Positions 1,641 through 28,793 of a DNA stretch of 51,154 nucleotides are shown one piece after another. The position numbers and the translations under genes were made by a program. The first letter of the stretch is position 1. The number at the start of each line of letters is the position of its first letter. The stretch lies in sequence record NC_049827.1; one strand, written 5' to 3'. The stretch comes from Escherichia phage damhaus. Under the pieces are notes generated by a model that searched no databases, was not told the DNA's origin, and saw only the letters and a list, made by a program, of their open reading frames with translations.

Positions 1641-1645
1641 AAATT

Positions 1646-2308
1646 ATGCATTTACCAAATGGATCGCAAATTTTCGTTGAGAGCAATCGCGGAAGCGCTA
1701 TTGAGGCAACGGCAGTATCAAACGCTAAAGATCCTGTATTCACCGTTGCATCTGGCGGAACTGCGTACAAGAAAGGTGATTATGTTATCATCACTGCGTC
1801 TTCTTGGGGTAAGCTGATTGATCGTGTTATGCGTGTAAAGACTAACGGTGAAGAAACAAGCGTAACTCTTGAGGGTGTTGATACTACCGATCAGAACGTG
1901 TTCCCGACTGGCGGCACTGCATCTTTTGCCAAGATTGATGCATGGACGGAGATCCCTTGCGTTCAGGATTTGTCGCAGGACGGCGGCGAACAGCAATACT
2001 ATACTTATCAGTGTTTGGCAGACGACCAGGAACAGCAGTTACCTACCTATAAGAGCGCCGTTTCTCTGACCTACACTTTTGCGCACGAATACGATAACGC
2101 GATCTATCCGTTACTTCGTGCAGCAGATGAATCAGGCGAAGTGACCGCGCTTCGCATGTATGTACCGAAAGCGAAAGAGATGCGTTGCTGGGCTGGTGTC
2201 CTTTCGTTTAACGAGATCCCACAAACGACCGTTAACGAAATGGAAACTGTTTCCCTGTCTGTATCCCTGAAAGGTCGATTCACCTTCCTACCTTCTCAAG
2301 TAGCATAA
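1646..2308 (+). CDS. major tail protein
   Basis: 220-aa ORF with AAGGAG RBS, followed by a strong terminator and then chaperone and tape measure genes (lambda V-like position). Confidence 0.7.
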   Translation: MHLPNGSQIFVESNRGSAIEATAVSNAKDPVFTVASGGTAYKKGDYVIITASSWGKLIDRVMRVKTNGEETSVTLEGVDTTDQNVFPTGGTASFAKIDAWTEIPCVQDLSQDGGEQQYYTYQCLADDQEQQLPTYKSAVSLTYTFAHEYDNAIYPLLRAADESGEVTALRMYVPKAKEMRCWAGVLSFNEIPQTTVNEMETVSLSVSLKGRFTFLPSQVA

Positions 2309-2313
2309 TCACA

Positions 2314-2337
2314 AGGGGCGTTGCGCCCCTTTTTTTG
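2314..2337 (+). terminator. rho-independent terminator after major tail gene
   Basis: AGGGGCG-TTG-CGCCCCT hairpin followed by a T-run. Confidence 0.7.
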
Positions 2338-2375
2338 TTACTGTACAATCATGCTACACGATTCATAATCAATTC

Positions 2376-2394
2376 TTTTAACAAAAAGTGCTAT
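2376..2394 (-). promoter_or_regulatory. conserved intergenic box, inverted copy (late region)
   Basis: TTTTAACAAAAAGTGCTAT on + strand, reverse complement of the ATAGCACTTTTTGTTAAAA box; lies between a CATAAT hexamer and the chaperone RBS. Confidence 0.6.
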
Positions 2395-2407
2395 CAAGGA
2401 GAAAGAA

Positions 2408-2725
2408 ATGTCAAAAATGAAATTGACGATTGGGCCGCTTCCTGACTTTAAATTACCAGTGAAATTTGCAATGCCTAACGGAGAAGATCAAACAATTATC
2501 TTCACAGTTCGCCACCGCAAAACAAGTGAGATTCACGAGCGATACACGTCAGATACTCCAATGAGCGATGTTGAAATGATCACCTTCCTTGCTTCCGGTT
2601 GGAATCTTGATGATGAATTTAACGAAGAAAATATTAAACAGCTTCTTGATTACTACCCAGCAACAGCAATCGGATTAACTAGCGCATACATGAAAGCGCT
2701 TGCTGGGCAGCGAGTAAAAAACTAA
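2408..2725 (+). CDS. tail assembly chaperone (lambda G-like)
   Basis: 105-aa ORF directly upstream of tape measure gene; ends with slippery A_AAA_AAC before its stop. Confidence 0.7.
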   Translation: MSKMKLTIGPLPDFKLPVKFAMPNGEDQTIIFTVRHRKTSEIHERYTSDTPMSDVEMITFLASGWNLDDEFNEENIKQLLDYYPATAIGLTSAYMKALAGQRVKN

Positions 2726-3036
2726 AAAGGGCGGTTTACCTGTTTTATCAGAAACCGCCGACAGATGCAGAGCTTGAGGCCGTTGGCCTTACAAGGGCAG
2801 ACTATGAAGGAGAAGATCCGCCAGAGGTTATATTTGATGAAAGCATGATGCAATCATGGGATATATTTTGCGCAATGCAAACGCAATGGAGATGTTCTGG
2901 CGGTGGCGCTTACGGATTTGATTATAATGTCTTGCCTATGCTTTTTGAGATTTACAAGGTTGAGGATCGCGAGATGGCGCTAAACGACTTGCGAATCATG
3001 GAGCAAAAAGCACTTGAAATGATGCATTCAAAATAA
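2408..3036 (+). CDS. tail assembly chaperone frameshift fusion product (G-T-like), -1 PRF at 2716-2722
   Basis: -1 frame is open from about 2683 to the stop at 3034-3036; slippery heptamer A_AAA_AAC; 8-bp stem-loop begins about 7 nt downstream (about 2730-2759). Confidence 0.55.
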
Positions 3037-3057
3037 GCGCCTACGGGCGCTTTTTTA
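3036..3057 (+). terminator. rho-independent terminator-like hairpin
   Basis: GCGCC-TAC-GGGCGC hairpin plus T-run between chaperone T-frame stop and tape measure start. Confidence 0.55.
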
Positions 3058-3075
3058 TTACCTGGAGGATTAATA

Positions 3076-5748
3076 ATGTCAGAACAATACGCAGGCTTGA
3101 CGCTTGGGGTTGACGTTTCTCAACTCAACAATGCTGTAAAGTCTTTGCAGCAATTCAAGAAGGCAAACGACGACGCAAAGGGGAGCGTTGAGAGTTTTGT
3201 TGATTCAGAGGTTGTTGCAAGACAAAGAGCCAAACAACTGGCTGAGGAATTGGCAAAGCAGAAGCAAGAATTTAAAGCAATTCAGTCGGCAATAGATCCG
3301 ACAGCAAGCAAAATGGATAAGTTGCGCCAGGCTGCGACACAGCTTGATGCGCTTTGGAAAAAAGGAATTGTTCCTGATGACACATTCTTTGAATTAGGAT
3401 CAATTCTTGAGACGCAGCAAAATAAACTGATCGCAACTAAAAAGGCGCTAACTGAAGAAGGCCGCGCAGCGCTTGAGGAAGCAAAAAATAAGGCAAGAGC
3501 AGAGGCTGAGGCAAGAAAGTTCATTGCGGCATTGCAGGCGCAAGCTGACGCAGCGGAAAAAACAAAATCAGAGCTTGTAGAAATGAGAGCCGCACAACTT
3601 GGAGTTAGTGCAGAGGCCGCGCCATTTATTGCAAAAATGAAGGAGCAGGAAAAACAAGCCTCAAAACTTGGCGTTTCTATGGGGCAGTACAAGCAAGCAA
3701 TGGCGCAATTGCCAATGCAGATTACTGACGTTGTTACTTCTCTTGCTTCAGGTATGCCAGTATGGATGATCGCAATCCAGCAGGGCGGGCAAATCAAGGA
3801 CTCATTTGGCGGTGTTGCTAACACGTTTAAAGCGCTAATGACATTTGTCACGCCTTTAAGTGTAGGAATTACGGCGCTGACTGGTGCTCTTGGTTATGCT
3901 GCATATAATGCATACAAAGCAAATGCACAACTGAAGGAGATCACAAAAACCGTTCAGGAGGCAACTGGTCTTTCTGGTGATTTTGCGGAGCGGATTGCAA
4001 CTGGAATCCAGGCGCTATCTGACAAGACAGGTGAGAGCGCCGATAATCTGGCAAAGGCATACATAAGCACTAAGGATGGAGCAACCGAGGCCATACAAAA
4101 ACTCGTCGATGTTGGGTTTACCTATGACGAAGCAAAGGTAAAGGTAAACGAATACAAGAATGCATCAAGTTTTGTAAGTCTCAACAATGAGATTGCTGAT
4201 CACAAAAACAAGGTTCTTGAGCTTGGCGATTCGTGGTATGAAGTCTTAAAAGCGAAGAATGATTATGCTTCACCGTCCGGCGGGCTGTTGGGGAAAGAGC
4301 TTGGTTATGTAAATCCTATGTTGCAATTTGCGAAGAACACCTATGAGGATATAGGAAAGATCGTAAAAGATGCGAATAAGGATATGGCGGAACGAGCAGC
4401 ACGCATCGACAGAGAAAATCTTTCCTTAAACAGAGTTCGAGCGGCGCAAGAGGCTTTAAACAAAGCCATAGAGGATCAGAAAAATGTAGCAAGGACAGCA
4501 GACGAAGAGTTGAAAAAACGAGCAGCCGAGAACGTGGAGTTCAGGCGAAAAGAGCTTGAAGAGGCGAAGAAGGCGCAGCAGCAAAAGGAAAAAGTTGGTG
4601 GAGTTGTAAAAGCACCAACAGAGAAGCTTGATAAGGAGCTATATGTTCTCAAAGCGCAACTTGAAACACTAAAAGAGCACAGGACTGTAAATGATGTTAT
4701 TTCACGCCAGAGGCAATCTTTGTGGAGCATTGAAAAGCAGATCCAGATCCTAGAGGAAGCGCAAAGCAAACGTAAGCTGACAAAAGCGGAACAGGCGTTA
4801 CTAAACGAGCAAAAAACAGTTCTTGCTATGGCAAAAGAAAAGGCCGAGATAGGCGATCAGATTGTTTTGCAACAGAGAAAGAACAAGCAATACCAGGAAG
4901 GGCTAAAGTTCATTCAGCAAACTTCAGATGCCATTGATGCTATGAACTTGCGACAGTCTGGAGCTACAGATCTGCAAATCCAGCGAGAGCTTGAATTGAA
5001 AAAGTTGCGAACTGATTATGTTGCTGGCGGAGGTAGTATCGACGATGAAATTTATCAGCAGATGGAAGCAAAGCTGAAGGAGTATTACGCCACTGAGGAT
5101 CAGCTAAGAAATAACTGGATTGCAGGAGCAAAAAACGCATGGGAGGTTTACGGACAAGATGCAATGGATATGTACGGAAACGTGCAAGATATTGCAAGCG
5201 AGGCGCTCAACGGTCTAACCAACCAAATGGCTACATTCCTTGCAACAGGCAAGGCAAACTTTAAGAGCTTCGCAACGTCAATCATCCAAATGATTATCCA
5301 GATGATCACGAAGATGGTTATCTTTAATGCCATATCCGGTGCGGTTGGCGGTGACACTTGGACGATTGGAAGCCTTCTTAAAAATGTTGGATTTGCAACT
5401 GGTGGATACACTGGCGACGGCGGGAAGTATGAGCCAGCAGGTGTTGTCCATAAAGGCGAGTTTGTCATGACGAAGGAGGCCACGAAGCGGATCGGAGTTG
5501 GAAATCTTTACAAAATGATGCGCGGTTATGCAAATGGCGGCGTTGTTGGCGGCACTTCATACACTGGCGGCGGAGTTTCATCTGGAGCAACAAATCTTAA
5601 TATTGGCGGGATCAACGTTGATATTAACAACGGAAGCGATCCGAAAGGGTTGGAGACTGGCGTAAAAATGATTTTCACTGATATGATTAAGCGTTCCTGT
5701 ACGCAGGGTGGGGAAGTTTACGAATTTGTTATGTCTAAGCGGGGGTGA
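3076..5748 (+). CDS. tail tape measure protein
   Basis: 890-aa ORF, long coiled-coil-like charged/Ala-rich central region, glycine-rich C-terminal part; follows chaperone frameshift pair. Confidence 0.85.
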
Positions 5749-8313: not shown

Positions 8314-11300
8314 ATGGCTGAAAATATGATAACGGGAAGTAAGGGCGGATCATCAAAACCTTATGTTCCGAAAGAGATGGAAGATAACCTGATCTCAATC
8401 AACAAAATCAAAATCCTTCTTGCCGTTTCCGATGGCGAGTGCGATCCAGATTTTACACTTCGCGATCTGTATCTTGATGATGTTCCGGTAATTGCAGACG
8501 ACGGAACTGTTAACTACAAGGGTGTGAAAGCTGAATTTCGACCTGGAACGCAGACGCAAGATTACATCCAGGGGTTTACTGACACATCAAGCGAAGTGAC
8601 GCTGGCGCGTGACATTACGACGACAAATCCTTATGTAATTTCCGTAACCAACAAAACATTATCGGCTATCAGAATCAAAATGCTAATGCCAACAGGCATT
8701 AAGCAAGAGGATAACGGCGATCTTGTCGGCGTTAAGGTTACTTATGCTGTTGATATGGCTGTTGACGGAGACTCTTACAAAGAAGTATTGCGAGACACTA
8801 TCGAAGGTAAAACGCGTTCAGGTTACGACAGAAGCCGAAGGATTGACCTTCCGGCATTTAATGATCGCGTATTACTTAGGGTTAGAAGGGTTACGGCAGA
8901 CAGCGCATCTTCTCGCGTTACTGATCTGATTAAGCTACAAAGTTACGCTGAGGTTATTGATGCAAAATTCCGTTATCCTCTGACTGGTCTTGTATACGTT
9001 GAATTTGACAGTGAGTTGTTCCCTAACCAGATCCCTAACATTTCAATCAAGAAGAAATGGAAGTTGATTAATGTTCCGAGCAATTACGATCCGGTAATGC
9101 GAGAGTATCACGGTTCATGGAATGGCACGTTCAAGAAAGCGTGGTCGAACAATCCGGCGTGGGTACTTTATGACATTATCACAAACCAGCGATACGGATT
9201 AGATCAGCGAGAGCTTGGTGTGCAGGTTGACAAATGGAGTCTTTACGAAGCGGCTCAATACTGCGATCAGAAAGTGCCGGACGGAAAAGGCGGCACAGAG
9301 CCGCGTTATCTATGCGACGTTGTGATTCAAAGTCAGATTGAGGCTTATCAGCTTATTCGTGATATTTGCTCAATCTTCCGAGGCATGAGCTTTTGGAATG
9401 GAGAGAGCTTGTCAATCGTCATTGATAAGCCGCGCGATCCGTCGTACATCTTCACAAATGACAATGTTGTTGATGGTGATTTTCAGTACACAACAGCAAG
9501 TGAAAAGAGCATGTACACGCAGTGCAACGTGACTTTCGATGACGAACAAAACATGTATCAACAGGACGTAGAGGGTGTATTCGACACAGAGGCCGCATTG
9601 CGCTTTGGATACAATCCTACAAGCATAACCGCGATCGGATGTACACGCAGGAGTGAGGCAAATCGGCGCGGTCGATGGATACTAAAAACCAACTTGCGCA
9701 GCACTACGGTAAACTTTGCTACTGGACTGGAAGGCATGATCCCATCAATAGGTGATGTGATTGCTATTGCTGACAATTTTCACAGCAGCAACCTTAAATT
9801 AAACCTATCAGGGCGCGTGATGGAAGTTTCCGGCTTGCAGGTATTCGTTCCGTTTAAGATTGATGCTAGACCAGGTGATTTCATTATCATCAACAAGCCG
9901 GACGGTAAGCCAGTTAAGCGCACAATCTCAAAGGTAAGCGGTGACGGAAAAACCATTGAGCTAAACATAGGGTTTGGGTTTGAAGTTAAGCCGGATACAG
10001 TTTTTGCAATCGACCGCACTGATATTGCATTGCAGCAATACGTTGTTACGTCTATCAGCAAAGGTGATGATGAGGATGAATTTACATACTCCATCACGGC
10101 TGTTGAATATGATCCTAACAAATACGACGAGATTGATTACGGAGTAAACATTGACGACAGGCCAACTTCAATTGTCCAGCCTGACACGATGGCAGCACCG
10201 GAAAACGTGCAAATATCCTCATACTCGCGAATTGTCCAGGGTGCAAGCGTTGAAACAATGGTTGTGTCGTGGGATAAAGTACCTTACGCATCACTGTATG
10301 AAATGCAATGGCGTAAAGGCGATGGCAACTGGCTGAATACACCACAGACCGCAAACAAAGAAATTGAGGTTGAAGGTATTTATTCAGGAAACTACCAGGT
10401 AAGGGTGAGATCTGTTTCTGCTTCCGGTTCGACTTCGCCGTGGTCCAGAATTGTGACAGCTTCACTGACTGGTAAGGTAGGAGAGCCAGGCGCGCCAGTT
10501 AACTTAACCGCATCCGACAATGAAGTTTTTGGCATTCGTGTTAAGTGGGGGATGCCAGAAGGGAGCGGAGACACGGCATACATTGAGCTTCATCAGTCGC
10601 CGGATGGAACGGCTGAAAACTCAAGCCTGCTAACGCTGATCCCGTATCCACAATATGAATACTGGCATGGAACGCTTCCGGCTGGTCATGTTGTATGGTA
10701 TCGGATCAGGAGCGTAGACAGGATCGGCAACGTTTCCGGTTGGACTGATTTTGTTAGAGGTATGGCTTCAGATGATGTGGAGGCTGTTTTAGGAGATATT
10801 CTTGACAAGATTTTTGATACTGAAGCAGGTCAGGATCTGAAAGAGAACGCCATTGACAGTGCAAACAAGATAAAGGACCAGGCGCAAGCAATCATCCAGA
10901 ATGCTCTTGCTAATGATGCTGATATTAAGTGGACGCGAGTACAAAACGGAAAGAGAAAGGCTGAATATGGTCACGCTCTTGAGCTTATAGCCACAGAGAC
11001 TGAGGCACGAGTTACGCAGATTGAAGAATTGAGGGCGTCAATAGACGAGGATATTGTTTCAAGCATAAAGACAGTGCAGGAGGCTATCGCCACAGAATCT
11101 GAAACGCGAGCAACTCAAATAAACGCTTTGGATTCAAAATTCACAACTGAAATTGACGGCGTAAAACGCGATACAGCAGCAAGCATTAATCAGGTGAATC
11201 AAACAATTGCCAACGAATCTGAAGCGCGAGCGCAGGCCGTTAACGCTCTTGATGCGAAGTTCACAAAGGAGATCGAAGATTTAAACGGAGTTATTAAGAC

Positions 11301-11892
11301 TGAGGTTGAGGCTAACATCTCTGAAGTGAAACAGGCTATCGCTAACGAGACAGAAGCAAGGGTGCAGGCTGACCAGGCGTTAACAGCTAAGTTTGGAGAC
11401 GTTGAATCTGCATTAACTCAAAAACTTGATTCATGGGCTAGTGTGTCGTCTGTTGGAGCTAAATACTCAATGAAATTGGGGTTAACATACAACGGTCAAC
11501 AGTACAGCGCAGGAATGGTAATGCAGCTTTCGCAGAGTTCATCCGGCCTTATCTCGCAGATTTTGTTTGATGCGAACAGGTTCGCCATCATGACAAGTTC
11601 GACTGGCGGGGTGTATACGCTGCCTTTCGTGGTGGAAAATAACCAGGTATTCATTAACAGCCTGTTAGTGAAAAACGGTTCAATCACCAATGCGATGATC
11701 GGTAATTATATTCAGTCGAATAACTTTGTTGCCAACTCGACGGGGTGGAGGCTGGATAAAAACGGCAGATTTGAGAACTACGGTTCGACTTCTGGAGAAG
11801 GGGCCATGAAGTTGACCAATGAAACAATAAGTGTGCGAGACGCAAACGGGCGCTTGCGTGTTCAGATTGGTAGGCTTACTGGTACGTGGTAA
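8314..11892 (+). CDS. central tail fiber / host specificity protein (lambda J-like)
   Basis: 1192-aa ORF after I-like gene; fibronectin-III-like segment; C-terminal tandem repeats of about 33 aa. Confidence 0.85.
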   Translation: MAENMITGSKGGSSKPYVPKEMEDNLISINKIKILLAVSDGECDPDFTLRDLYLDDVPVIADDGTVNYKGVKAEFRPGTQTQDYIQGFTDTSSEVTLARDITTTNPYVISVTNKTLSAIRIKMLMPTGIKQEDNGDLVGVKVTYAVDMAVDGDSYKEVLRDTIEGKTRSGYDRSRRIDLPAFNDRVLLRVRRVTADSASSRVTDLIKLQSYAEVIDAKFRYPLTGLVYVEFDSELFPNQIPNISIKKKWKLINVPSNYDPVMREYHGSWNGTFKKAWSNNPAWVLYDIITNQRYGLDQRELGVQVDKWSLYEAAQYCDQKVPDGKGGTEPRYLCDVVIQSQIEAYQLIRDICSIFRGMSFWNGESLSIVIDKPRDPSYIFTNDNVVDGDFQYTTASEKSMYTQCNVTFDDEQNMYQQDVEGVFDTEAALRFGYNPTSITAIGCTRRSEANRRGRWILKTNLRSTTVNFATGLEGMIPSIGDVIAIADNFHSSNLKLNLSGRVMEVSGLQVFVPFKIDARPGDFIIINKPDGKPVKRTISKVSGDGKTIELNIGFGFEVKPDTVFAIDRTDIALQQYVVTSISKGDDEDEFTYSITAVEYDPNKYDEIDYGVNIDDRPTSIVQPDTMAAPENVQISSYSRIVQGASVETMVVSWDKVPYASLYEMQWRKGDGNWLNTPQTANKEIEVEGIYSGNYQVRVRSVSASGSTSPWSRIVTASLTGKVGEPGAPVNLTASDNEVFGIRVKWGMPEGSGDTAYIELHQSPDGTAENSSLLTLIPYPQYEYWHGTLPAGHVVWYRIRSVDRIGNVSGWTDFVRGMASDDVEAVLGDILDKIFDTEAGQDLKENAIDSANKIKDQAQAIIQNALANDADIKWTRVQNGKRKAEYGHALELIATETEARVTQIEELRASIDEDIVSSIKTVQEAIATESETRATQINALDSKFTTEIDGVKRDTAASINQVNQTIANESEARAQAVNALDAKFTKEIEDLNGVIKTEVEANISEVKQAIANETEARVQADQALTAKFGDVESALTQKLDSWASVSSVGAKYSMKLGLTYNGQQYSAGMVMQLSQSSSGLISQILFDANRFAIMTSSTGGVYTLPFVVENNQVFINSLLVKNGSITNAMIGNYIQSNNFVANSTGWRLDKNGRFENYGSTSGEGAMKLTNETISVRDANGRLRVQIGRLTGTW

Positions 11893-11898
11893 AATCAA

Positions 11899-11922
11899 AG
11901 CGGGGCGCTTGCCCCGCATTTA
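11899..11922 (+). terminator. terminator-like hairpin after J-like gene
   Basis: GCGGGGC-GCTT-GCCCCGC hairpin followed by ATTTA (weak U-tract). Confidence 0.45.
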
Positions 11923-11935
11923 TGGAGGTTTAATA

Positions 11936-12241
11936 ATGGCTGAATATGGTGTTTCAACGTGGGATGCTAACGGTAAGTATAACAACTACGGAATCAAGCC
12001 AGTTTCCGTTGTTGGTGTCATCAGCCTTGCCGCTGGTCAGACAAGCGGATCGTGGAGCTTTAGCATTCCAAGTGGTTTTAAGATTGGGTATGTTGTTTCA
12101 CTTGATGAAGGTGCTAGAGGAGTTGGAAGGGAAATAGTAGCATCTGGAAATACAATAAGAATTAGTCCTACATCGTCAATCGGTGCAAATAGGTATTCTT
12201 CTTCAAAGTGCGAGTTAGTTGTTTTTCTTGAGAGGGTTTAA
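11936..12241 (+). CDS. putative receptor-binding protein 1
   Basis: GGAGG RBS; 101 aa starting MAEYG...WDANGK; immediately downstream of J-like gene. Confidence 0.5.
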   Translation: MAEYGVSTWDANGKYNNYGIKPVSVVGVISLAAGQTSGSWSFSIPSGFKIGYVVSLDEGARGVGREIVASGNTIRISPTSSIGANRYSSSKCELVVFLERV

Positions 12242-12242
12242 A

Positions 12243-12881
12243 ATGGCTGAGTATGGAGCGATGTTATCATTATCAAATGGGAATCCATTTGTTACACCAA
12301 AATCAACGCCATTTTGCTTATATGGCAAGTACACTTATTCATCTTCAGGTACTTCTGCCTATCATAGCGCAAGCGCAAATATACCAGTAAATCAATCTTA
12401 TCCATGCATGGCATTTATAAAAACAACAAACACACAGCAGCCAACTGCATTAATAGCTTACAGGAACGGTGGTAATATTTATGTAAACGGAGGTAATCCA
12501 TACGGGCAATCATTTACAATGACTGTTTATATATTTGCCATATTCCCTCAAAATCTACCAAAATATGGCATGGCTATATGGGATGCAAGCGGCAAGTTGG
12601 TTTTAACTAATGAAAGCAGGGTGCTAACAGACCTTGTGACAATTGGTACTCCTGGCTCTTCAGGTGGGACGAATATAGATCAGACATTATCTGGTTCTTA
12701 TGCCGTTTGCCCATCAAGGCTTGGTGCGGTTATAGGTATGGGTGCGTCTGACATATATACATCATGCAGGTATAATGGTTCAGTCACAAGGATAGGTGCA
12801 GCAAGGACAACTCCAGGGACGGGTTCTATAACAAATAACGGAAATTCAATAATTGCAATAAAGACTGATATTTACGACTAA
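12243..12881 (+). CDS. putative receptor-binding protein 2 (paralog)
   Basis: 212 aa, same MAEYG N-terminus and an internal YGMAIWDASGK repeat of the motif. Confidence 0.5.
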   Translation: MAEYGAMLSLSNGNPFVTPKSTPFCLYGKYTYSSSGTSAYHSASANIPVNQSYPCMAFIKTTNTQQPTALIAYRNGGNIYVNGGNPYGQSFTMTVYIFAIFPQNLPKYGMAIWDASGKLVLTNESRVLTDLVTIGTPGSSGGTNIDQTLSGSYAVCPSRLGAVIGMGASDIYTSCRYNGSVTRIGAARTTPGTGSITNNGNSIIAIKTDIYD

Positions 12882-12883
12882 TG

Positions 12884-12912
12884 AAAAAGGGGCTTTCGCC
12901 CCTTTGTTTTTA
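12884..12912. terminator. bidirectional rho-independent terminator
   Basis: AGGGGC-TTTC-GCCCCT hairpin flanked by an A-run and a T-run between convergent genes. Confidence 0.65.
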
Positions 12913-12913
12913 T

Positions 12914-13141
12914 TTACAGACTGCAATCAGCGTTTTTAAAGTTGTCAATGCTTACCCACTGAAAATTAAACGGATAGCCAGCCTTAACAAGAGTGCGGTC
13001 GCCAACTCGTTTTACTCCAAAAATAGCAACTGAATACTGCATACCGCTATTTTCATAAATAGCCGTGCATTCACGTTTAGGCATATTTGCGCAACCAGTC
13101 ATGGTTACGGCTGCAATCAAAACGGCGATTAATTTTTTCAT
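12914..13141 (-). CDS. small outer-membrane lipoprotein, putative superinfection-exclusion (Cor/Llp-like)
   Basis: 75 aa with signal peptide and lipobox (MTGC); convergent with receptor-binding-like genes as in T1/T5-type phages. Confidence 0.55.
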   Translation of the reverse strand: MKKLIAVLIAAVTMTGCANMPKRECTAIYENSGMQYSVAIFGVKRVGDRTLVKAGYPFNFQWVSIDNFKNADCSL

Positions 13142-13196
13142 CTTGGTATCTCCTTCGTTGTTGTTGGTTGCAACTATACACGATCTTACAGCAGGC

Positions 13197-13217
13197 GTTT
13201 AGCAAAAAGTGCTATTC
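13197..13217 (-). promoter_or_regulatory. conserved intergenic box, degenerate copy
   Basis: reverse complement reads GAATAGCACTTTTTGCTAAAC; on the minus strand followed by TATAGT and the leader/RBS of the lipoprotein gene. Confidence 0.5.
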
Positions 13218-13585
13218 TGTTCTTTTTGTTCTCGCGTGTTCTCAAATCTGCGGAGTCTTAAATTTAGCTCAAAAAGTGAACAATAATAGAGAGCAATACA
13301 TACAGATAAATATATATACATACATATAAATCAATAAGTTAGTAGTATATATATTTATGTTTGTTCTTTATTGTTATCTATGTTTTGTGTGATTTTGTGT
13401 GTCTGGTGATTTTTCTGTGATTATGCATGTGTCAGTGGTTATGTGTGCCTATATATCTATATCCGGCGCAAATTGAGGAACAAGAGAACAAAACGACAAC
13501 AAAGATATTTATCAATCACTTACATGTAAGTTTTGTTATCCAAATTGACGAGAACGTTGTTAAAACAGAAAAAACAAAATAACTA

Positions 13586-13613
13586 TTGACTAAACGCATC
13601 AAATAGCTACAAT
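13586..13613 (+). promoter_or_regulatory. sigma70-type promoter (TTGACT-N16-TACAAT)
   Basis: near-consensus -35 and -10 hexamers about 30 nt upstream of the exonuclease start. Confidence 0.6.
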
Positions 13614-13642
13614 GCAGACATACCAACCAATGAGGGCAAATC

Positions 13643-14704
13643 ATGAATAAGTTTATGGCGTACACCAGCGAAGAAATGAGTAATGATCTTTATCACGATC
13701 CAGAAGCGTGGACGGCTGACTATGTTAGTGGATCAAGCCTGGCCGAGATTTACAGCACATGCCCGGCGGCGTGGAAGTTCAAGCCTCGTGACGATAATAG
13801 CAAGGCGCTAGTTTTTGGTACACAGTCGCATACCAACTTTGAAAGCAAGGAGCTTTTCGAAAAAACCTATCGACGCGCGCCAGCGCCAGAAGACTTTAAG
13901 GATCTGATAACTAGCCAAACTGCGCTTGCCGCAAAACTGAAATCATTTGGCCTGAAAGGTACAACCGGAAAGACTTATCCAGACCTTATCAAAATGATGG
14001 TCGATTGCGGAGAAGACCTTAACGTTATGTGGTTGATTGAGATGATCGAAGAAAGCCAGGCCAGAGCCGACGGAGTGCAGCTAATCGACGCTAAAGACTA
14101 CGACGCTTGCGTTGCAATGCGCCAGGTTCTGGAATCAATACCGGAACATAACGCATGTATGAATAGCAAGACAGCACAACGTGAATTATCGTTGTTCGGT
14201 GAAATCAACGGCGTAAAAGTCAAAGTGCGATGCGATCACGTTGACGTAACAAAGAACGTGACAGCAACTCTGATTGATGGTTACGATGAAAAAGGTCAAC
14301 CGATTTGCCGCGATATTATTTATCCAGAGGCCATTGTGATCACAGACTACAAAACCACGATGAGCGCGAATCCGTCTGAGTTTATGCGCCTGGCTTACAA
14401 TCACGGCTATTATTTGAAAATGGCGTTGCAATGTGATTTATTCAGGAAAGCGTATCCAGAAGAAAAGCGACCTATAGTTGTTCGCCTGTTAGCACAGGAG
14501 AAGAAAGAGCCTTATTTGCCGTTGGCTTTCCGCATGAACAACGAGCAATTGAAGATTGGGCGCATTCAGTACATGAGCGTGATTAACCAGTTTGCCATGT
14601 GCCAGCAACATGACGTTTGGCCTTCGTATTCAAACGGTGAGCCGGAGGTTTGTCTTGATACTCCTGATTGGGTGCGACGTCAGTTTAAGCAATATCTTAT
14701 TTAA
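13643..14704 (+). CDS. PD-(D/E)xK recombination exonuclease
   Basis: 353-aa ORF with IVITDYKTT (D-x-K) nuclease motif; first gene of exonuclease / annealase / SSB module. Confidence 0.6.
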   Translation: MNKFMAYTSEEMSNDLYHDPEAWTADYVSGSSLAEIYSTCPAAWKFKPRDDNSKALVFGTQSHTNFESKELFEKTYRRAPAPEDFKDLITSQTALAAKLKSFGLKGTTGKTYPDLIKMMVDCGEDLNVMWLIEMIEESQARADGVQLIDAKDYDACVAMRQVLESIPEHNACMNSKTAQRELSLFGEINGVKVKVRCDHVDVTKNVTATLIDGYDEKGQPICRDIIYPEAIVITDYKTTMSANPSEFMRLAYNHGYYLKMALQCDLFRKAYPEEKRPIVVRLLAQEKKEPYLPLAFRMNNEQLKIGRIQYMSVINQFAMCQQHDVWPSYSNGEPEVCLDTPDWVRRQFKQYLI

Positions 14705-14785
14705 ACAGCACAAATAGCTAAACAAATGAAAAATGCGGTGTTATAATTCACCGCATAAGTTAACAACAAGTGTGAGGAAATAAAC

Positions 14786-15064
14786 ATGGAAAACAAACAA
14801 GTTTCAGAGGTAGCAGTTCATATCAATAATTTTGCAACTGGCATGGCTATGTTGCTTCGTGACTTTGTAGCGCCGCTTGATCCAACGGCAGGCACAGAAG
14901 AAATGGAGTACATCAGAAAAGTAATGGATGCAGTCGATAACGTCGTACTTGTTGCAACAATGAGCGAAGACAACGAGGAAGCAATCAAGGCGGTAAAAGA
15001 AAGTTCTGATCGCATGATGGAAAATCTGATTAAATTACACACCAAAGAAGAAACAAAGCATTAA
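14786..15064 (+). CDS. hypothetical acidic protein
   Basis: 92-aa ORF with GAGGAA RBS; D/E-rich; no recognisable motif. Confidence 0.55.
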   Translation: MENKQVSEVAVHINNFATGMAMLLRDFVAPLDPTAGTEEMEYIRKVMDAVDNVVLVATMSEDNEEAIKAVKESSDRMMENLIKLHTKEETKH

Positions 15065-15109
15065 CAGCAATAAGGCGGCGAAAGCCGCCATTAGTTACGG
15101 GAATTAATC

Positions 15110-15766
15110 ATGAAACTATCAGAGCAATTCGATAAGGTTTTACCAGCACTGCATAAGGCGCGTAGTTTGTTTGTAAAGGTGAAGAAGGATAAGCAAAACA
15201 CTCACCTTAAAAACCGTTACGCAACACTTGATGCCGTACTTGATGCAATCACCCCAGCATTGAATGATAACGAGCTAATGTTGATGCAGGACATGATTGA
15301 AAGCGAACAACCTAACCGCATCAAAGTTGAGACAACCGTTCTTCATGTTTCAGGTCAGTGGGTGAAATTTTACGCAGAGCTACCAATCGTTAAAAACGAT
15401 CCTCAAGGTGTCGGATCTGCATTCACATACGCGCGTCGCTATGCAGCAGCAGCAGCATTTGGCTTAAGCCAGGCAGACGATGACGCACAGATTGCCGTTA
15501 AATCTGCAAACGACTGGAAGCGTGACATTGAGAAATGCGAAAGCGTAAACGAATTGCAAGAAGTGCTTAAATCAGCATGGAAGGCAAGCGATCCGGCAAG
15601 CAAGCAGGTAATTAAAGAGCATTACGAAAAACGCAAAGCAGAGCTTGAGATCGGAAAAGCGCGAGGATTTAATCCAGCGCAACCAAAGCAAAATCTCGCT
15701 ACTCAAGAAGTTGACACAAAAAACGACGAGAAAGTAAAATCACAAAGTATCACTGACTTTGAATAA
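15110..15766 (+). CDS. single-strand annealing protein (ERF-like)
   Basis: 218 aa with [17 protein letters not shown] motif as I recall it from ERF-family proteins; sits between exonuclease and SSB. Confidence 0.55.
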
Positions 15767-15772
15767 TTGACA

Positions 15773-15796
15773 TGGGGCGCTTGCGCCCCTTTCTTA
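15773..15796 (+). terminator. terminator-like hairpin
   Basis: GGGGCGC-TTG-CGCCCC hairpin followed by TTTCTT. Confidence 0.5.
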
Positions 15797-15810
15797 CAGG
15801 AGAATAAATA

Positions 15811-16263
15811 ATGCATATTATTACTGGTGAGATCCGAAAAGAGCCGCGAGTAAAGCAAATGCCTAACGGCAGCACACTTTATGTGGTTGAACTTTCAGAG
15901 CGATACAAAGATAAAGATGGAAACTGGCAATATACAAACTACAGTTTCTTTTTTAATGCCAAAACAGAAGGTCTTAATGGTTGGTATGCTGAGGCGTTCC
16001 AGGTTGGAAAGGTTATTTCTGTATCTTGCGACACGCTGCGCATAGAAACGCGTGAATATAACGGAAAGATGTATTCAAGTTTGATGCCTGGCGGATTTGC
16101 AAATCTTATCTTCAGTCAGCGCGGGGAAAGCCAGCAACAATATCAGCAGCGAACGCAAGGAGGATGGGGACAACCACAACAACAGAATCAACCGCAACAA
16201 CCGCAACAGCCAAGACAAAGCAATCAACCTCCTATGGACTTTGACGACGACATTCCTTTCTGA
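15811..16263 (+). CDS. ssb: single-stranded DNA-binding protein
   Basis: OB-fold-like N-terminus, Q/P/G-rich linker and canonical acidic tail DFDDDIPF. Confidence 0.85.
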   Translation: MHIITGEIRKEPRVKQMPNGSTLYVVELSERYKDKDGNWQYTNYSFFFNAKTEGLNGWYAEAFQVGKVISVSCDTLRIETREYNGKMYSSLMPGGFANLIFSQRGESQQQYQQRTQGGWGQPQQQNQPQQPQQPRQSNQPPMDFDDDIPF

Positions 16264-16268
16264 TCAAC

Positions 16269-16291
16269 AAAGGGGCATTACGCCCCTTTTT
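16269..16291. terminator. bidirectional terminator
   Basis: AAAGGGGC-ATTA-CGCCCCTTTTT between convergent SSB and minus-strand genes. Confidence 0.6.
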
Positions 16292-16535
16292 CACTTTCAG
16301 CCATCCCAAGCACGGCAATCACCTTAACAGCAATTCTCTTTGCAAGTTCAGTTTGATGAGCGTTAAGTTTTCCAGTGGTCATTATTGACAACATTCCGCT
16401 CATACTTCCAAGCCCGTTAAGATCTGACATTGCAGATTTCATTATTGATATTGGTGAATGACCATCATCAGCTATTGTGTGCGCTCTCTCTGACAGGTCT
16501 TTAACTACCTGATCAATTCCTTCACTTTTCGTCAT
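16278..16535 (-). CDS. hypothetical protein
   Basis: 85-aa ORF; its 3' end overlaps the terminator hairpin, so the true extent is uncertain. Confidence 0.4.
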   Translation of the reverse strand: MTKSEGIDQVVKDLSERAHTIADDGHSPISIMKSAMSDLNGLGSMSGMLSIMTTGKLNAHQTELAKRIAVKVIAVLGMAESEKGA

Positions 16536-17013
16536 TTGCTTTTCCTTCAGGAGTTGATTGCTGTTCTGGCATTACAGGCCACGGGCTAATTGATTCCCTT
16601 TCTGCTACTGGTTTTTCAGGTTCAATACCTAAAAACTTTCCTACAAACTCACCAACAAAATTTGAGCTATCGCTTACATAAACATGCATCCTGTCTAGAT
16701 CTGCAACCGTAACGCTATTTGGTGCGATCATGATCCTCTGTTGGTGAAAACCGATATACATCACATTAGCCGGACGCTCAATAGTTCCCATATTTGGCGC
16801 AATTACGCCCATTATCCAACAATAATGAATGTTGCCATCAAGCGGCTCACATCCAGCGTTAAGCCAGTTTACTTTCTGGTGTGGGAATGCCATTGATGAA
16901 TCAGTAGCATCACGCCGCAACGACCATTTAACGCCTCCAATCTCAATGATTTGTTTTGGCCTCATTCCGTTGAATTGAGTCACGCCAGCGCCATTTTGAT
17001 TAATGTTTTGCAT
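16522..17013 (-). CDS. hypothetical protein
   Basis: 163-aa ORF with AAGGTGA RBS. Confidence 0.6.
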   Translation of the reverse strand: MQNINQNGAGVTQFNGMRPKQIIEIGGVKWSLRRDATDSSMAFPHQKVNWLNAGCEPLDGNIHYCWIMGVIAPNMGTIERPANVMYIGFHQQRIMIAPNSVTVADLDRMHVYVSDSSNFVGEFVGKFLGIEPEKPVAERESISPWPVMPEQQSTPEGKANDEK

Positions 17014-20530: not shown

Positions 20531-21463
20531 TTAGAGAAGAGATTCAGGTTTGTAAACCTTCCTCTCTATCCCTTGCCTGTAATTATCATTAATCGGCATC
20601 ATAATTTCAAGTCCTCTTTCCTCGGCAGCAATGATCGCGTCACGATCTGTGCTCTTACAGACAACTCGCATTCTTCTGTTGCCTTTATACCTGTAAGCTA
20701 CAATCTCAATGTTAGTTGCATCAAAGCAGGCCCAAACCTCCTGACCAGTTGCAAGGTGAATATGTTGCGCATCAATCCAGTCAACGCAAAGATAGATCGT
20801 CTTATCTGTGCTTCCTGTTCTCACAACCGACCCGCGCGTGTATTCCTTTGCGAGAAAAGACTGTTTACCTTCTTCATCAATGAAAAGCACATTGCACATT
20901 TCATCATCAATATCATCGGAATGTACCAGGTAACATGGTAACGCGTGAATGTATCGACCATCTTTAACGCCGCATTCATAATGGCCATCTTCAGGCGGGT
21001 ATATCCCTTCATAGGTGCTTAACGGCGTGCGATCAAATTTTAGTGTTTTTGACATAACGCGCTCGCAGCATTCATGGCTTGCCTGTTTCCCAAACGAATA
21101 ACCAGAATCACGAGATACTCGCTTATTTGCCTTGATCCTATAGTCCTGCGGAACTTTTCCAAGAAAGCGGCCCAAAATATTGATCACTTCGCTGTAAGGT
21201 TCTCCGGTTATCTTCATGATCCAACCAATTCCAGTATCGTTCCCGCACACGTTGCAGATAGCGCCGCCGTCGCCTTTTTTATCTCCAAGTTTATCCGTCC
21301 ATCTGAAGCGATCCTTTCCGCCGCAGTGGGGGCAAGATTGATGCTTGCCGTTAAAAACTTCATTTGGAAGACCGCAAATACTTTGTAGCGCCTCACGCCA
21401 TAATCCCTGCATATATGGGAGAACATCTTCCTTTTGATAAACCATAAAGTTTTCGTTGTTCAT
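20531..21463 (-). CDS. DNA primase (zinc-binding)
   Basis: Start moved to Met35 (GAGGTG RBS); CPHCGGKDRFRW zinc-ribbon motif near the N-terminus. Confidence 0.6.
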   Translation of the reverse strand: MNNENFMVYQKEDVLPYMQGLWREALQSICGLPNEVFNGKHQSCPHCGGKDRFRWTDKLGDKKGDGGAICNVCGNDTGIGWIMKITGEPYSEVINILGRFLGKVPQDYRIKANKRVSRDSGYSFGKQASHECCERVMSKTLKFDRTPLSTYEGIYPPEDGHYECGVKDGRYIHALPCYLVHSDDIDDEMCNVLFIDEEGKQSFLAKEYTRGSVVRTGSTDKTIYLCVDWIDAQHIHLATGQEVWACFDATNIEIVAYRYKGNRRMRVVCKSTDRDAIIAAEERGLEIMMPINDNYRQGIERKVYKPESLL

Positions 21464-21518
21464 ATGCACCTCAAACAAAAAAGCCTGACAGATGATAACA
21501 TCATGCCAGGCATTGTTT

Positions 21519-21992
21519 TTAGCAATTAGTGCTTTCAGGTTTATACAGGAATCCGCCAGGTTCATAATCTGACATTCTTACCACTCGCAACATTTCACGC
21601 TTATCACATCTCTTTGTGAGCGGTTTGCCATTGGAATCAAATCGCAGGTCTGGACGACAAAATGATGCGCGATAACCTTGACAGCCATACTTTTTATAAT
21701 CATTGTGCACCTTTTGAGCGCCAGCGGCTGAAATCATACCGCGAACGCGCCACTGATTTACAGTTTGCTGGCTAACGTTAAGACGTTTTGCCATTGCTGA
21801 TACACTTCCGTAATACTCAATAAGGATGTCAAGGCGCGCTTTTAGTCCGGCGCGAACTTCATCTTTTAAAACATAGTATCCTGTAGGGCGCTTGCGCTTT
21901 TTCTTATCTTTACCCCGTCGAGTTCCGTTGTTGCCATTAATTGTGCGCTTGTCAATCTTGCCAGTTGATACGGCGATCCGCTGTTCTTTCAT
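21519..21992 (-). CDS. HTH-domain DNA-binding protein (putative transcriptional regulator)
   Basis: 157 aa; predicted helix-turn-helix SVSAMAKRLNVSQQTVNQW; very basic N-terminus; divergent from helicase gene. Confidence 0.55.
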   Translation of the reverse strand: MKEQRIAVSTGKIDKRTINGNNGTRRGKDKKKRKRPTGYYVLKDEVRAGLKARLDILIEYYGSVSAMAKRLNVSQQTVNQWRVRGMISAAGAQKVHNDYKKYGCQGYRASFCRPDLRFDSNGKPLTKRCDKREMLRVVRMSDYEPGGFLYKPESTNC

Positions 21993-24127: not shown

Positions 24128-24533
24128 TAAAGGCGATTATCTGGAGTTTTACGAAAGAGATCCGACAGATACGCTAAAAGAGGAATCTCACCAGATCGGG
24201 GCGTTTCAATGGTTAACTTATGCTCATCCTGAATTACTGGCATGGCATACGAAAAACGAGGGCGACAAGGGGATCGCCACCGCAATGATGGATCAGCAAG
24301 CTGGGCTTGTTAAGGGCGTAAGTGATTTTATCATCCTGATTGGATTAAAAGGTCGTTACCCGTTCGCGGCAATTGAGATGAAGCGCGTCAATAAGTCCGG
24401 CAAGGGTAAGGCTTCACCAGTCAGCAAGGACCAAAAAGCCTTCTTGCGTCGTGTGCGTGAGCTTGGCGGATTCGCTGCCGTAACATACGGATATAAGCAA
24501 TTCATGATCGCTGTAGAATACATGATGAAATAG
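24114..24533 (+). CDS. VRR-NUC-like PD-(D/E)xK nuclease
   Basis: 139 aa with D...E-x-K pattern (GVSDFIIL...AIEMK). Confidence 0.55.
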   Translation: MAMTDKGDYLEFYERDPTDTLKEESHQIGAFQWLTYAHPELLAWHTKNEGDKGIATAMMDQQAGLVKGVSDFIILIGLKGRYPFAAIEMKRVNKSGKGKASPVSKDQKAFLRRVRELGGFAAVTYGYKQFMIAVEYMMK

Positions 24534-24549
24534 CACTTTTTGTTAAAAC
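24528..24549 (+). promoter_or_regulatory. conserved intergenic box copy
   Basis: AAATAGCACTTTTTGTTAAAAC; its TAG is the stop of the upstream gene; followed by a GC hairpin and CATAAT. Confidence 0.7.
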
Positions 24550-25313: not shown

Positions 25314-25553
25314 ATGCAGAAAGAAAGAAGCGTTTATTTAAATGAAACTGGAGAGTGGTTGTTATTTCGCGCTATGGTTTGCGAGGCGCTTGATAAAAAC
25401 GATTTCATAAAGCCGCTATTAGGTTGCGACCCGTGGGAGTTTACAAGCGCGCTTGATATGAGCTTTGAGGAAACAAGAAAACTACCGCTTGAAAAATGGC
25501 ATGAGCAGATCGGTAAAGACTTGCAAGAGTTTTACGAATCCGCGTCAAAATAG
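25314..25553 (+). CDS. hypothetical protein
   Basis: 79 aa from an internal Met of track ORF 24966-25553; GGAG RBS. Confidence 0.5.
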   Translation: MQKERSVYLNETGEWLLFRAMVCEALDKNDFIKPLLGCDPWEFTSALDMSFEETRKLPLEKWHEQIGKDLQEFYESASK

Positions 25554-28732: not shown

Positions 28733-28793
28733 GATGTTTTCCTTCTGGTCGTTTCGTCTCGATGAAACAAATATACCCGATACGAGATCGGGT

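Follow-up and report, generated by a model that had tools for sequence, protein, structure and literature searches.

A duplicated iteron-bearing element as a candidate replication origin in the T1-like phage damhaus

We asked what a 501-bp gap (positions 13142-13642) between cor (12914-13141, minus strand) and an exoVIII/RecE-like gene (13643-14704, plus strand) might do in Escherichia phage damhaus. The window analysed was the complete genome of this T1-like phage (Drexlerviridae, Hanrivervirus-type; 51 kb, 51,154 nucleotides). One of the seven classical T phages, T1 belongs to a family with several hundred sequenced members, many of which have been put forward for therapy or are notorious for contaminating fermenters. 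To our knowledge, the replication origin of T1 has never been mapped, and recent papers on the TLS and SU57 genomes reported that no origin could be found for these T1-like phages (PMC11447400, PMC7718038). Our literature searches likewise returned no mapped origin for the T1 family; an earlier mention in the T1 or Rtp genome paper is possible.

A composite non-coding element between cor and exoVIII

The original prediction placed the gap between divergent genes and saw no plausible ORF in it, and both statements held. The four small ORFs (13427-13582, 13087-13329, 13199-13321 and 13516-13665) were rejected, each carrying stop codons in close relatives, and we therefore regard the gap as non-coding. 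Searching the whole damhaus genome against Rfam at gathering thresholds yielded no RNA family match. Some annotation pipelines call small ORFs in the equivalent gap of relatives. From left to right, the gap holds a perfect box copy directed toward cor, a 286-bp composite element (13217-13502), hereafter R1, and a sigma70 promoter for recE-erf-ssb. The features of the gap are as follows.

13173-13178, minus strand: -10-like hexamer TATAGT for cor, 21 nt downstream of the box TTGCTA
13198-13215, minus strand: box ATAGCACTTTTTGCTAAA, the 18-21-nt direct repeat of the phage family, oriented toward cor, 0 mismatches
13217-13502, plus strand: R1 composite (iterons, AT-rich core, T/G-rich tract, GC clamps), a unit found twice and collinear with R2
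13218-13242, plus strand: left iteron array, three copies of TGTTCT (13218, 13227, 13237) spaced 9 and 10 bp
13246-13256, plus strand: left GC clamp ATCTGCGGAGT, related to the TCCGCAGA / CCGGCGyAAA motif of other lineages
13277-13282, plus strand: inverted iteron copy TGAACA
13290-13357, no strand: AT-rich core, 82% A+T, candidate DNA-unwinding element, containing the most AT-rich 70-nt window of the genome
13329-13341, plus strand: IHF consensus match AATCAATAAGTTA, putative site at the centre of the R1 core
13355-13460, plus strand: T/G-rich tract, 77% T+G, containing the most T+G-rich 100 nt of the genome
13362-13386, plus strand: iterons right of the core, TGTTCT (13362), TGTTAT (13372) and TGTTTT (13381), spaced 10 and 9 bp
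13461-13474, plus strand: right GC clamp ATCCGGCGCAAATT
13477-13501, plus strand: inverted iteron array GGAACA, AGAACA, ACAACA
13510-13522, plus strand: second IHF consensus match TATCAATCACTTA, putative site
13586-13613, plus strand: predicted sigma70 promoter TTGACT-16-TACAAT for exoVIII-erf-ssb, 10/12 match, 84 bp past the end of R1

The outer parts of the gap are familiar from other T1-like phages. The box, originally described as a degenerate copy at 13197-13217, is present there and is not degenerate: it matches ATAGCACNNNTTGNTAAA perfectly on the minus strand and is one of 17 perfect copies in the damhaus genome. Like the direct repeats of TLS and T1, it fits aaATAGCACnnnTTGnTAAAA, the consensus published for TLS as a 21-nt direct repeat (PMC11447400), is intergenic and points at its downstream gene, here cor. 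Nearly all box copies are followed at 21-22 nt by a TATAnT-like hexamer, and the box is probably a phage-specific promoter element. The near-consensus promoter foreseen at 13586-13613 was also found, and it corresponds to TLS P51 upstream of recE (PMC11447400). The box and P51 are thus shared between TLS/T1 and the damhaus gap, but they only flank R1.

Within R1, the iterons at 13218-13242 and 13362-13386 run forward and are opposed by inverted copies at 13277-13282 and 13477-13501, and the second copy of the element (R2, below) is patterned alike. The TGTT of each left-array repeat is kept in position in 21 Tempevirinae, with the following 2-3 nt differing by lineage. Counted per 350 bp, TGTT[CA]T occurs 7 times in R1 and 10 times in R2; the mean for the genome is 0.63 and the next-best value is 4. 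The right end of R1 consists of CCGGCGCAAAT followed by the three inverted copies, and GCGCAAA or CGCAAAA was found in 9 of 20 lineage representatives. The string WATCAANNNNTTR occurs 8 times in 51 kb, twice within R1, and AATCAATAGTTTA is retained in several relatives. Neither R1 nor R2 contains a DnaA box, which is neutral with regard to a phage-encoded initiator.

In composition, the tracts that the original prediction called unusual are genuine outliers. Among 70-nt windows of the genome, the two richest in A+T lie at 13307 (0.86) and 35052 (0.84), with the next at 0.79, and among 100-nt windows the two richest in T+G lie at 13348 (0.80) and 35128 (0.79), with the next at 0.72. Among the strings it listed, TATATATA (13311 and 13346) and TTGTGTG (13385 and 13395) are present, but CATACATACATATA is absent, the actual string being ATATATATACATACATATA at 13310. 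The longest alternating purine-pyrimidine run of the genome (19 nt) is located there as well; alternating content was rejected as a hallmark of the element, being high yet no clean outlier. An imperfect palindrome at 13279-13375 folds better as DNA than all 200 shuffles (z=-3.8). Its counterpart in R2 is not significant (z=-1.3), and cruciform formation is therefore no shared defining feature. The T/G-rich tract of R1 is predicted to have almost no structure as a single strand (z=-1.5).

Two copies per genome, conserved across the T1 family

The original prediction held that the element is present twice. A profile built from 18 other Tempevirinae loci, and so without the damhaus copies, matched the damhaus genome at exactly two places, collinear and on the same strand: R1 (nhmmer E=1.1e-36) and a second region, R2, the surroundings of which are listed here.

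34793-34810, minus strand: box copy ATAGCACTTTTTGTTAAA, toward the leftward small genes of region 2
34811-34992, no strand: pac-type region, rich in GATTG and GATGA, with GATC at 34874, 34891 and 34903; in region 2 only
34993-35259, plus strand: R2 composite, the paralogue of R1, nhmmer E=1.6e-15 over HMM positions 10-280 of about 290
34997, 35007, 35016 and 35025, plus strand: R2 iterons, four copies of TGTTAT
35346-35375, plus strand: predicted sigma70 promoter TTGACA-18-GATAAT, 11/12 match, 87 bp past the end of R2

R2 repeats the order of R1: the four TGTTAT copies are followed by TCCGGCG, three inverted ATAACA, an AT core (35063-35128), TGTTGT and TGTTAT (35130 and 35139), a T/G-rich tract (35129-35215), a GC clamp (35216-35236) and, last, inverted ATAACA / AACAACA. 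The two cores are 82-83% A+T. Both predicted sigma70 promoters are nearly invariant in the Tempevirinae alignment.

Pairwise alignment gave a result that depended on the ranges used. The pairing originally proposed, 13280-13480 with 35100-35240, did not stand out (forward z=1.6, with 26 of 300 shuffles as good); these sub-ranges are too narrow. The full R1 and R2 regions aligned at z=5.0 against shuffles preserving local composition, and the corresponding pairs in T1, TLS and Rtp also exceeded such shuffles, with z=35 in Rtp.

The pair of elements is carried by T1, TLS, Rtp, haarsle and SRT8 too, and was seen in every T1-family phage examined. In TLS, the profile detects them at 28747-29023 and 120-430, in contrast to the statement in the TLS paper that neither gp58 nor the rest of that genome contains iteron-type repeats (PMC11447400); haarsle is likewise paired. 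The two most AT-rich 70-nt windows of the genome are exactly these cores in damhaus, T1, TLS, haarsle and Rtp, and the layout of the element is kept across five subfamilies.

The repeats themselves are specific to lineages. Upstream of exoVIII, 54 loci carry 6-12-nt repeats in up to 13 copies, mostly 8-10 bp apart. The top repeated 6-mer averages 6.0 copies in these loci compared with 3.4 in coding DNA (p=3e-8), and the spacing of same-strand copies peaks at 8-10 and 18-20 bp. Repeats found in different lineages include TGTTCT, TGTTTC, TGTAAC, GATTAC, TGGGACAAAT (10-13 copies), AATCCTCCGCAA (8-9 copies) and GTAAGAT (11 copies). RCIP0096 is a relative of the TGTTTC type and not a Webervirus. 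The two copies share one 11-nt repeat in Ec_L1, but R1 and R2 repeats differ in several genomes (TGTTAC and TGTTAA in T1, TGTAATC and TGTCTAA in SRT8, TGTTCT and TGTTAT in damhaus), which we count against an origin function. In Webervirus F20 and Eclunavirus Ec_L1, R1 lies between the primase and exoVIII genes, both pointing in the same direction, and R1 is therefore more than a spacer between divergent promoters.

Candidate replication proteins and origin precedents

We consider it reasonably likely, judging from sequence and protein models, that R1 and R2 are two paralogous replication-origin modules. Iteron-type origins are recognized by at least three direct repeats phased about one helical turn apart and by an adjacent AT-rich region of low stability, and both elements have the former as well as the latter. 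The reading is further suggested by the presence of just two copies, their outlying AT and T+G content, the iteron density and the repeat excess in the 54 loci. Of the shared regulatory or origin-like element that was originally proposed, the duplication is thus upheld; the origin-like part fits the anatomy and the helicase model, with the function remaining a candidate one. The following gene products could act with the elements.

20531-21565: primase
21519-21992, minus strand: Cro-like HTH protein, directly before the primase; candidate repeat reader or regulator
28931-29323, minus strand: 130-aa winged-helix protein, directly after the helicase; candidate DNA-binding partner
29326-30909, minus strand: DUF3987 helicase, 527 aa from the start used by relatives; candidate initiator helicase

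The DUF3987 helicase models as an MCM-like AAA+ protein with a C-terminal winged helix, and we infer that it acts at R1 and R2. Similar modules were found in two distant phages whose DUF3987 helicase is 36-39% identical; in one of these, L214, the module occupies a 498-bp gap immediately upstream of the helicase gene. The pairing of HTH protein and primase also recurs in L214, where an 87-aa protein precedes the primase (hhalign probability 93%). By its fold, the 130-aa protein is a winged helix of a generic kind, without a specific relative, and the 137-aa protein that follows the L214 helicase has no detectable relation to it. Counted against the origin reading is the C-terminal domain of the helicase, which is well conserved across lineages with unlike repeats.

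A close architectural likeness is to the origins of SaPI and SCCmec elements, in which 6-12 penta- or hexanucleotide iterons are divided equally between the two sides of an AT-rich region and point in opposite directions. These origins are served by the MCM-like self-loading hexameric initiator helicases Rep2 and Cch with a C-terminal winged helix (PMC9371898). R1 and R2 share the opposed iterons around an AT-rich region, and the DUF3987 helicase appears to share the SF3/MCM-like class and the C-terminal winged helix. This match in helicase build, together with the module adjoining the L214 helicase gene, argues for the origin reading. The differences are that the damhaus elements have no detectable sequence similarity to these origins, carry in addition a T/G-rich tract, GC clamps and flanking promoters, and are accompanied by a candidate winged helix whose sequence shows no clear covariation with the repeats. 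Moreover, the SaPI origin is single and immediately downstream of rep, whereas damhaus has two copies at 4-16 kb from the helicase and primase genes (the helicase gene is 4 kb from R2 and 16 kb from R1), and the module adjoins the helicase gene only in L214.

Two-site systems provide further precedents that favour an origin function. SPP1, a pac-type headful siphovirus with AT-rich islands as its strongest composition bias, has two origin-type sites, oriL and oriR, each combining direct repeats with an AT-rich unwinding element and both bound by one initiator; its switch to concatemers employs a 5'-3' exonuclease, a single-strand annealing protein, SSB and a junction resolvase (PMC6316719). 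Damhaus encodes the corresponding set (exoVIII, Erf-like, SSB and VRR-NUC). However, SPP1 has an initiator (gp38), a loader (gp39) and a DnaB-type helicase (gp40), none of them related to the MCM-like helicase of damhaus; oriL lies inside gene 38, and the sites share no sequence similarity. In P4, ori consists of the 8-nt repeats GGTGAACA/TGTTCACC, 10-11 bp apart, around an AT-rich spacer, and the same repeats recur in crr, a second cis site about 4.8 kb away. The TLS repeat GTGAACA equals 7 of the 8 bases of the P4 repeat, and the damhaus primase and P4 alpha have the Zn_Ribbon_Prim domain (PF08273) in common. P4 alpha, however, is a single chain of primase, SF3 helicase (D5_N/DUF5906) and Pox_D5 origin-binding domain, whereas the damhaus helicase is separate and MCM-like. 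None of the damhaus candidates matched an alpha-homologous domain of the Pox_D5 type: phmmer against the PDB gave nothing significant for a P4-alpha-like origin-binding domain, and in hhalign comparisons with P4 alpha, none of the three proteins (helicase, 130-aa protein and HTH protein) exceeded a probability of 0.5% (0.3% at best for the 130-aa protein). The best, non-significant stretch of the 130-aa protein lies in the C-terminal domain of alpha.

On this model, a phage-encoded DNA-binding protein would occupy the phased iterons that face each other across the AT-rich core, while divergent transcription from the box promoter and the strong sigma70 promoter would generate negative supercoiling, and an IHF-type bend at the centre of R1 may assist. 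The AT core would then melt, with the neighbouring T/G-rich strand remaining unstructured, the MCM-like DUF3987 helicase with its C-terminal winged helix would self-load together with the P4-alpha-type primase, and the genome would be copied by host polymerase. Protein binding, melting, helicase loading and the firing of one copy or both are what we infer. In a more elaborate version, which we regard as speculative and rather improbable, the MCM-type self-loading initiator helicase would be loaded at both paralogous origins with a division of labour like that of SPP1: one would fire theta replication, and R1, bound by initiator, would be a programmed fork barrier that triggers a recombination-dependent switch to concatemers. 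R1 lies directly upstream of recE-erf-ssb.

Alternative functions and implications for T1-like phages

R1 and R2 could also be transcription control regions. On this view, either the Cro-like HTH or the 130-aa winged-helix protein would be a phage regulator that uses the repeats as operators or activator sites to switch both the divergent box promoters and the two early sigma70 promoters that are strongest, and the core would be bent or IHF-bound architectural DNA. This reading, which is compatible with origin function, seems to us conceivable but doubtful. Each element is followed, at about 85 bp, by a near-consensus sigma70 promoter and adjoins a box promoter, R1 has IHF consensus matches, and only three intergenic sigma70-like promoters are reported for TLS, of which one precedes recE (PMC11447400). 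In L062, L063 and L068, the rightmost repeats abut the promoter, as expected of a transcription factor site, and this also counts against the origin reading. However, the core and most of the repeats are 100-370 bp upstream of the -35, too distant for ordinary operator or UP-element action, and the repeats, being direct hexamers one helical turn apart, lack the palindromic form typical of sites for Cro-type dimers. In favour of a regulator is the phage-encoded Cro-like HTH protein, with a recognition helix that differs between lineages, a difference confounded with phylogeny; where lineage and repeat are uncoupled, the helix does not track the repeat, since F20 and L214 have GTAAGAT repeats in common and unlike HTH helices, and this weighs against both the regulatory and the origin reading. 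Transcription control would also leave unexplained the extreme AT content, the T/G strand bias and the association with the MCM-like helicase that distant phages show.

A role in packaging or recombination, either as auxiliary small-terminase sites near pac or as preferred entry sites for RecE/Erf, is very improbable. R2 adjoins the stretch where the deposited genome sequences of T1, TLS, Rtp and haarsle have their start, the pac of T1-like phages has been located in that untranslated region (PMC7718038), and R1 is upstream of recE-erf-ssb. A pac site should coincide with the genome terminus, yet these termini map to about 34850-34950, left of R2 and not within it (the haarsle start equals damhaus 34938), in the stretch equivalent to the separate GATTG/GATGA-rich block at 34811-34992. 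R1 has no such block and is 22 kb from pac, and such a role would leave both the AT core and the helicase link unaccounted for. Least credible is a small RNA, a small protein or a compositionally drifting spacer with chance repeats, suggested by the long non-coding stretch, the strong promoter nearby and the ORFs called in relatives. The Rfam result for the whole genome and the T/G tract, in which no structure is predicted, argue against an RNA, as do the stops in close relatives against a protein, and chance could not account for the profile match of R2, the five-subfamily layout or the repeat excess.

These findings make R1/R2-type elements, on the grounds of their sequence and the modelled helicase, the best candidates yet for the unmapped replication origins of the T1 family. 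They provide exact, testable origin coordinates that can be applied family-wide. If the origin reading is true, MCM-like self-loading helicases and iteron/AT-rich origins, hitherto studied in staphylococcal islands, would also drive virulent coliphages, and T1-like phages would be a second example of a two-origin phage besides SPP1. The elements would then also supply defined cis elements for T1-based replicons and for engineering or disabling T1-like phages.

Organization of the gap between cor and exoVIII

The genome is complete, circularly permuted and T1-like. The 601 bases around the gap between cor and the exonuclease VIII/RecE-like gene (exoVIII) are matched by 57 phage records at 80-99% identity, including Escherichia phages aaroes, grams and haarsle and Shigella phage pSf-1; the matching phages are Drexlerviridae, Tempevirinae, Hanrivervirus. 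About 18-20 GenBank 'Campylobacter phage' records (MG065636-MG065687, host given as Campylobacter jejuni) are 92-93% identical to the E. coli/Shigella Hanrivervirus region; their host labels look doubtful (contaminating coliphages?).

In agreement with the original prediction of a gap of about 500 bp with a strong sigma70 promoter and no plausible ORF, stop codons break all four small ORFs of the gap in relatives that are 92-98% identical, and the gap is therefore non-coding. G+C reaches its minimum for the window (0.313) in the 300-bp bin 13201-13500, and a composite element, R1, occupies 13217-13502.

Features of the gap and its flanks
12914-13141, minus strand: Cor lipoprotein gene, left of the gap
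13142-13642: gap, 501 bp
13198-13215, minus strand: perfect box ATAGCACNNNTTGNTAAA, directed at cor
13218, 13227 and 13237, plus strand: left repeats of R1, TGTTCT
13246-13256: left GC clamp
13277-13282: inverted repeat copy
13290-13357: AT core, 82% A+T
13329-13341: IHF consensus match WATCAANNNNTTR, centre of the core
13362, 13372 and 13381: three TGTT repeats right of the core
106 nt within R1: T/G tract, 77% T+G, nearly no single-strand structure predicted
13461-13474: right clamp, ATCCGGCGCAAATT
13477-13501: three inverted repeat copies at the right end
13510-13522: second IHF consensus match in the R1 region, WATCAANNNNTTR
13586-13613, plus strand: sigma70 promoter TTGACT-16-TACAAT, 84 bp past the R1 end
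13643-14704, plus strand: exoVIII, right of the gap, followed by Erf-like and SSB genes

The AT core lies within an imperfect palindrome (13279-13375; DNA fold z=-3.8, equalled by 0 of 200 shuffles). The strict IHF consensus has 8 matches in the window, 2 of them in R1, one at the exact centre of this palindrome; no match was found in R2, the R1 paralogue at 34993-35259. The predicted TATATATA and TTGTGTG tracts were present in R1, and an inexactly described CATACATACATATA proved to be ATATATATACATACATATA at 13310, the window's longest alternating purine-pyrimidine run.

A box copy, the family's 18-21-nt direct repeat, had been described as degenerate; the copy is there but is not degenerate, since it has no mismatch. 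The window holds 17 perfect copies in all, others being at 24530-24547 (+), 25550-25567 (+), 28796-28813 (-), 31639-31656 (-), 36133-36150 (+) and 39969-39986 (+), for example. A -10-like hexamer (TATAAT, CATAAT or TATAGT) stands 21-22 nt past the TTGNTA of each box, the over-long spacer being a GC-rich hairpin in most copies, and the structural gene block is nearly free of boxes. The boxes look like a phage-specific promoter class requiring a phage factor; the TLS paper leaves their function an open question (PMC11447400).

A second copy and its conservation

Eighteen other Tempevirinae, with neither the window nor its close relatives among them, supplied the corresponding stretch for a profile HMM, which matched the window only twice: at R1 (E=1.1e-36) and R2 (E=1.6e-15), both on one strand and over HMM positions 10-280 of about 290. 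This bears out the proposal that the element is present twice; both copies were also recovered in TLS and haarsle. In TLS (AY308796) the elements lie at 28747-29023 and 120-430, with repeats GTGAACA/TGTTC. The profile-guided alignment of R1 and R2 is collinear, part by part. The sub-ranges originally put forward align no better than shuffles in forward orientation (z=1.6); the full regions give z=6.7 against dinucleotide shuffles and z=5.0 against shuffles preserving local composition. Against the latter, T1 gives z=6.7, TLS z=7.7 and Rtp z=35 (123 bp, about 85% identity).

R2 keeps the part order of R1 with TGTTAT repeats, and a promoter lies 87 bp past its end. It differs by an extra 180 bp on its left:

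34811-34992: pac-type block

GATTG/GATGA/TGAG motifs abound in this block, and three GATC sites lie within 30 bp (34874, 34891 and 34903). The deposited haarsle genome starts at window position 34938, and those of T1, TLS and Rtp in the equivalent stretch.

Non-coding similarity to R1 occurs in 178 phage records, at identities down to 67% and always upstream of exoVIII. We also fetched 80 IMG/VR loci with an exoVIII homologue, 54 after dereplication. The commonest 6-mer (at least 2 G/C) averages 6.0 copies in these 54, 3.4 in the coding DNA beside them and 3.0 in shuffles (Wilcoxon p=3e-8); on a given strand, each copy is followed by the next at 8-10 or 18-20 bp. The repeat sequence depends on lineage:

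Tempevirinae: TGTTCT, TGTTTC, TGTTTA
T1 group: TGTAAC
SRT8: GATTAC
Klebsiella-type group: GTAAGAT, 11 copies
Further lineages: TGGGACAAAT, 10-13 copies; TGTTAT, 8 copies; AATCCTCCGCAA, 8-9 copies

When 21 Tempevirinae are aligned, every repeat keeps its TGTT in place and the 2-3 bases after it drift. Both copies of one genome share a repeat in Eclunavirus Ec_L1 (AATCCTCCG) and in another lineage (TGTTAT); R1 and R2 repeats are unlike in T1 (TGTTAC/TGTTAA) and SRT8 (TGTAATC/TGTCTAA). Some features recur regardless of lineage: ATATATA (19 of 20 lineages), TATAGATA (14 of 20) and GCGCAAA-type clamps (9 of 20).

In Webervirus F20 and Ec_L1, R1 lies within the replication and recombination module between co-directional primase and exoVIII genes, and is therefore more than a spacer between divergent promoters. 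Primase, R1, exoVIII, erf and ssb run in one direction (F20, 1152-4133; Ec_L1, 135-2694), with an HTH regulator seen ahead of the primase in F20 only. Webervirus and Eclunavirus have no cor gene beside R1, and the F20 R1 region matches 343 records. Klebsiella phage RCIP0096 (OR532890) carries at 9022-9233, in an expected tail-fibre region, the annotation 'CRISPR with 4 repeat units'.

Candidate proteins and modules in distant phages

The window encodes a DUF3987 helicase, followed directly by the gene for a 130-aa protein, and a primase whose Zn_Ribbon_Prim domain is common to P4 alpha, directly preceded by a Cro-like HTH protein. The helicase, modelled as MCM-like with a C-terminal winged helix, has the build of the self-loading initiator helicases known from staphylococcal islands, in which the C-terminal winged helix recognizes penta- or hexanucleotide iterons, half on either side of an AT-rich region and in opposite directions (PMC9371898). 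Its C-terminal domain is conserved among lineages whose repeats differ; the recognition helix of the HTH protein changes from lineage to lineage, and F20 and the distant phage L214 have GTAAGAT repeats in common and unlike recognition helices. Using hhalign against P4 alpha, no P4-alpha-type origin-binding domain was detectable in the helicase, 130-aa protein or HTH protein.

Two distant phages, L214 and L216, encode DUF3987 helicases 36-39% identical and have a similar iteron/AT-rich module. In L214, a 498-bp gap immediately upstream of the helicase gene contains the most AT-rich 70 nt of the 21.5-kb locus, flanked by eight GGTAAGAT/ATCTTACC repeats in both orientations; in L216, the AT-richest window lies in a 556-bp divergent gap and has ten ACACGCCCACG-type repeats on its flanks. 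L214 also retains the HTH-primase gene pair (hhalign probability 93%). L214 (ENA ERZ1524532 NODE_9, 44.7 kb) has non-T1 virion genes, Terminase_3 and a tailspike-type Phage_tail_beta, and groups the greater part of the T1-type replication set in a compact block (9503-16947), in this order: iteron/AT-rich module, DUF3987 helicase, 137-aa protein, primase, HTH protein, ResIII helicase, VRR-NUC and DUF3799 exonuclease. The replication module therefore moves as a unit from one phage group to another.

Probable paired origins and other explanations

The original observation was confirmed with small corrections, and its reading as a shared regulatory or origin-like element is supported. On sequence and modelled structure, R1 and R2 are best read as probable paired replication origins of the iteron-plus-unwinding-element type served by a self-loading helicase. 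A phage protein would bind the repeats flanking the unwinding element; the divergent flanking promoters would generate negative supercoiling that, perhaps along with IHF, assists melting, after which the MCM-like helicase would load together with primase.

Because the last repeats adjoin the promoter in some lineages, transcription control, though less likely, must be taken seriously as a rival or as a second function. A packaging role for R1 and R2 is a weak explanation, and the pac-type block is probably a pac region distinct from the R2 element. An RNA explanation is likewise weak; no Rfam family matched anywhere in the whole window. Chance, too, is a weak explanation. The two cores are the two AT-richest 70-nt windows of the whole genome in the window, T1, TLS, haarsle and Rtp (A+T 0.84-0.91, compared with at most 0.80 elsewhere), the window's two T+G-richest 100-nt stretches are the tracts beside them (0.80 and 0.79; next 0.72), and, counting both strands, TGTT[CA]T reaches 7 copies per 350 bp in R1 and 10 in R2 (mean 0.63, next-best 4).

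Paired origins have two-site precedents. SPP1 oriL and oriR each combine direct repeats with an AT-rich unwinding element and bind one initiator; fork stalling at oriR has been proposed to trigger the switch to concatemers, which depends on exonuclease, annealing protein, SSB and resolvase (PMC6316719). GGTGAACA repeats occur in both ori and crr of P4, and 7 of their 8 bases recur in the TLS repeat GTGAACA. The TLS and SU57 papers report that the origin was not found in these phages (PMC11447400, PMC7718038). The T1 or Rtp genome papers possibly mention the regions. R1 and R2 are two paralogous copies conserved across a classical phage family without a mapped origin.
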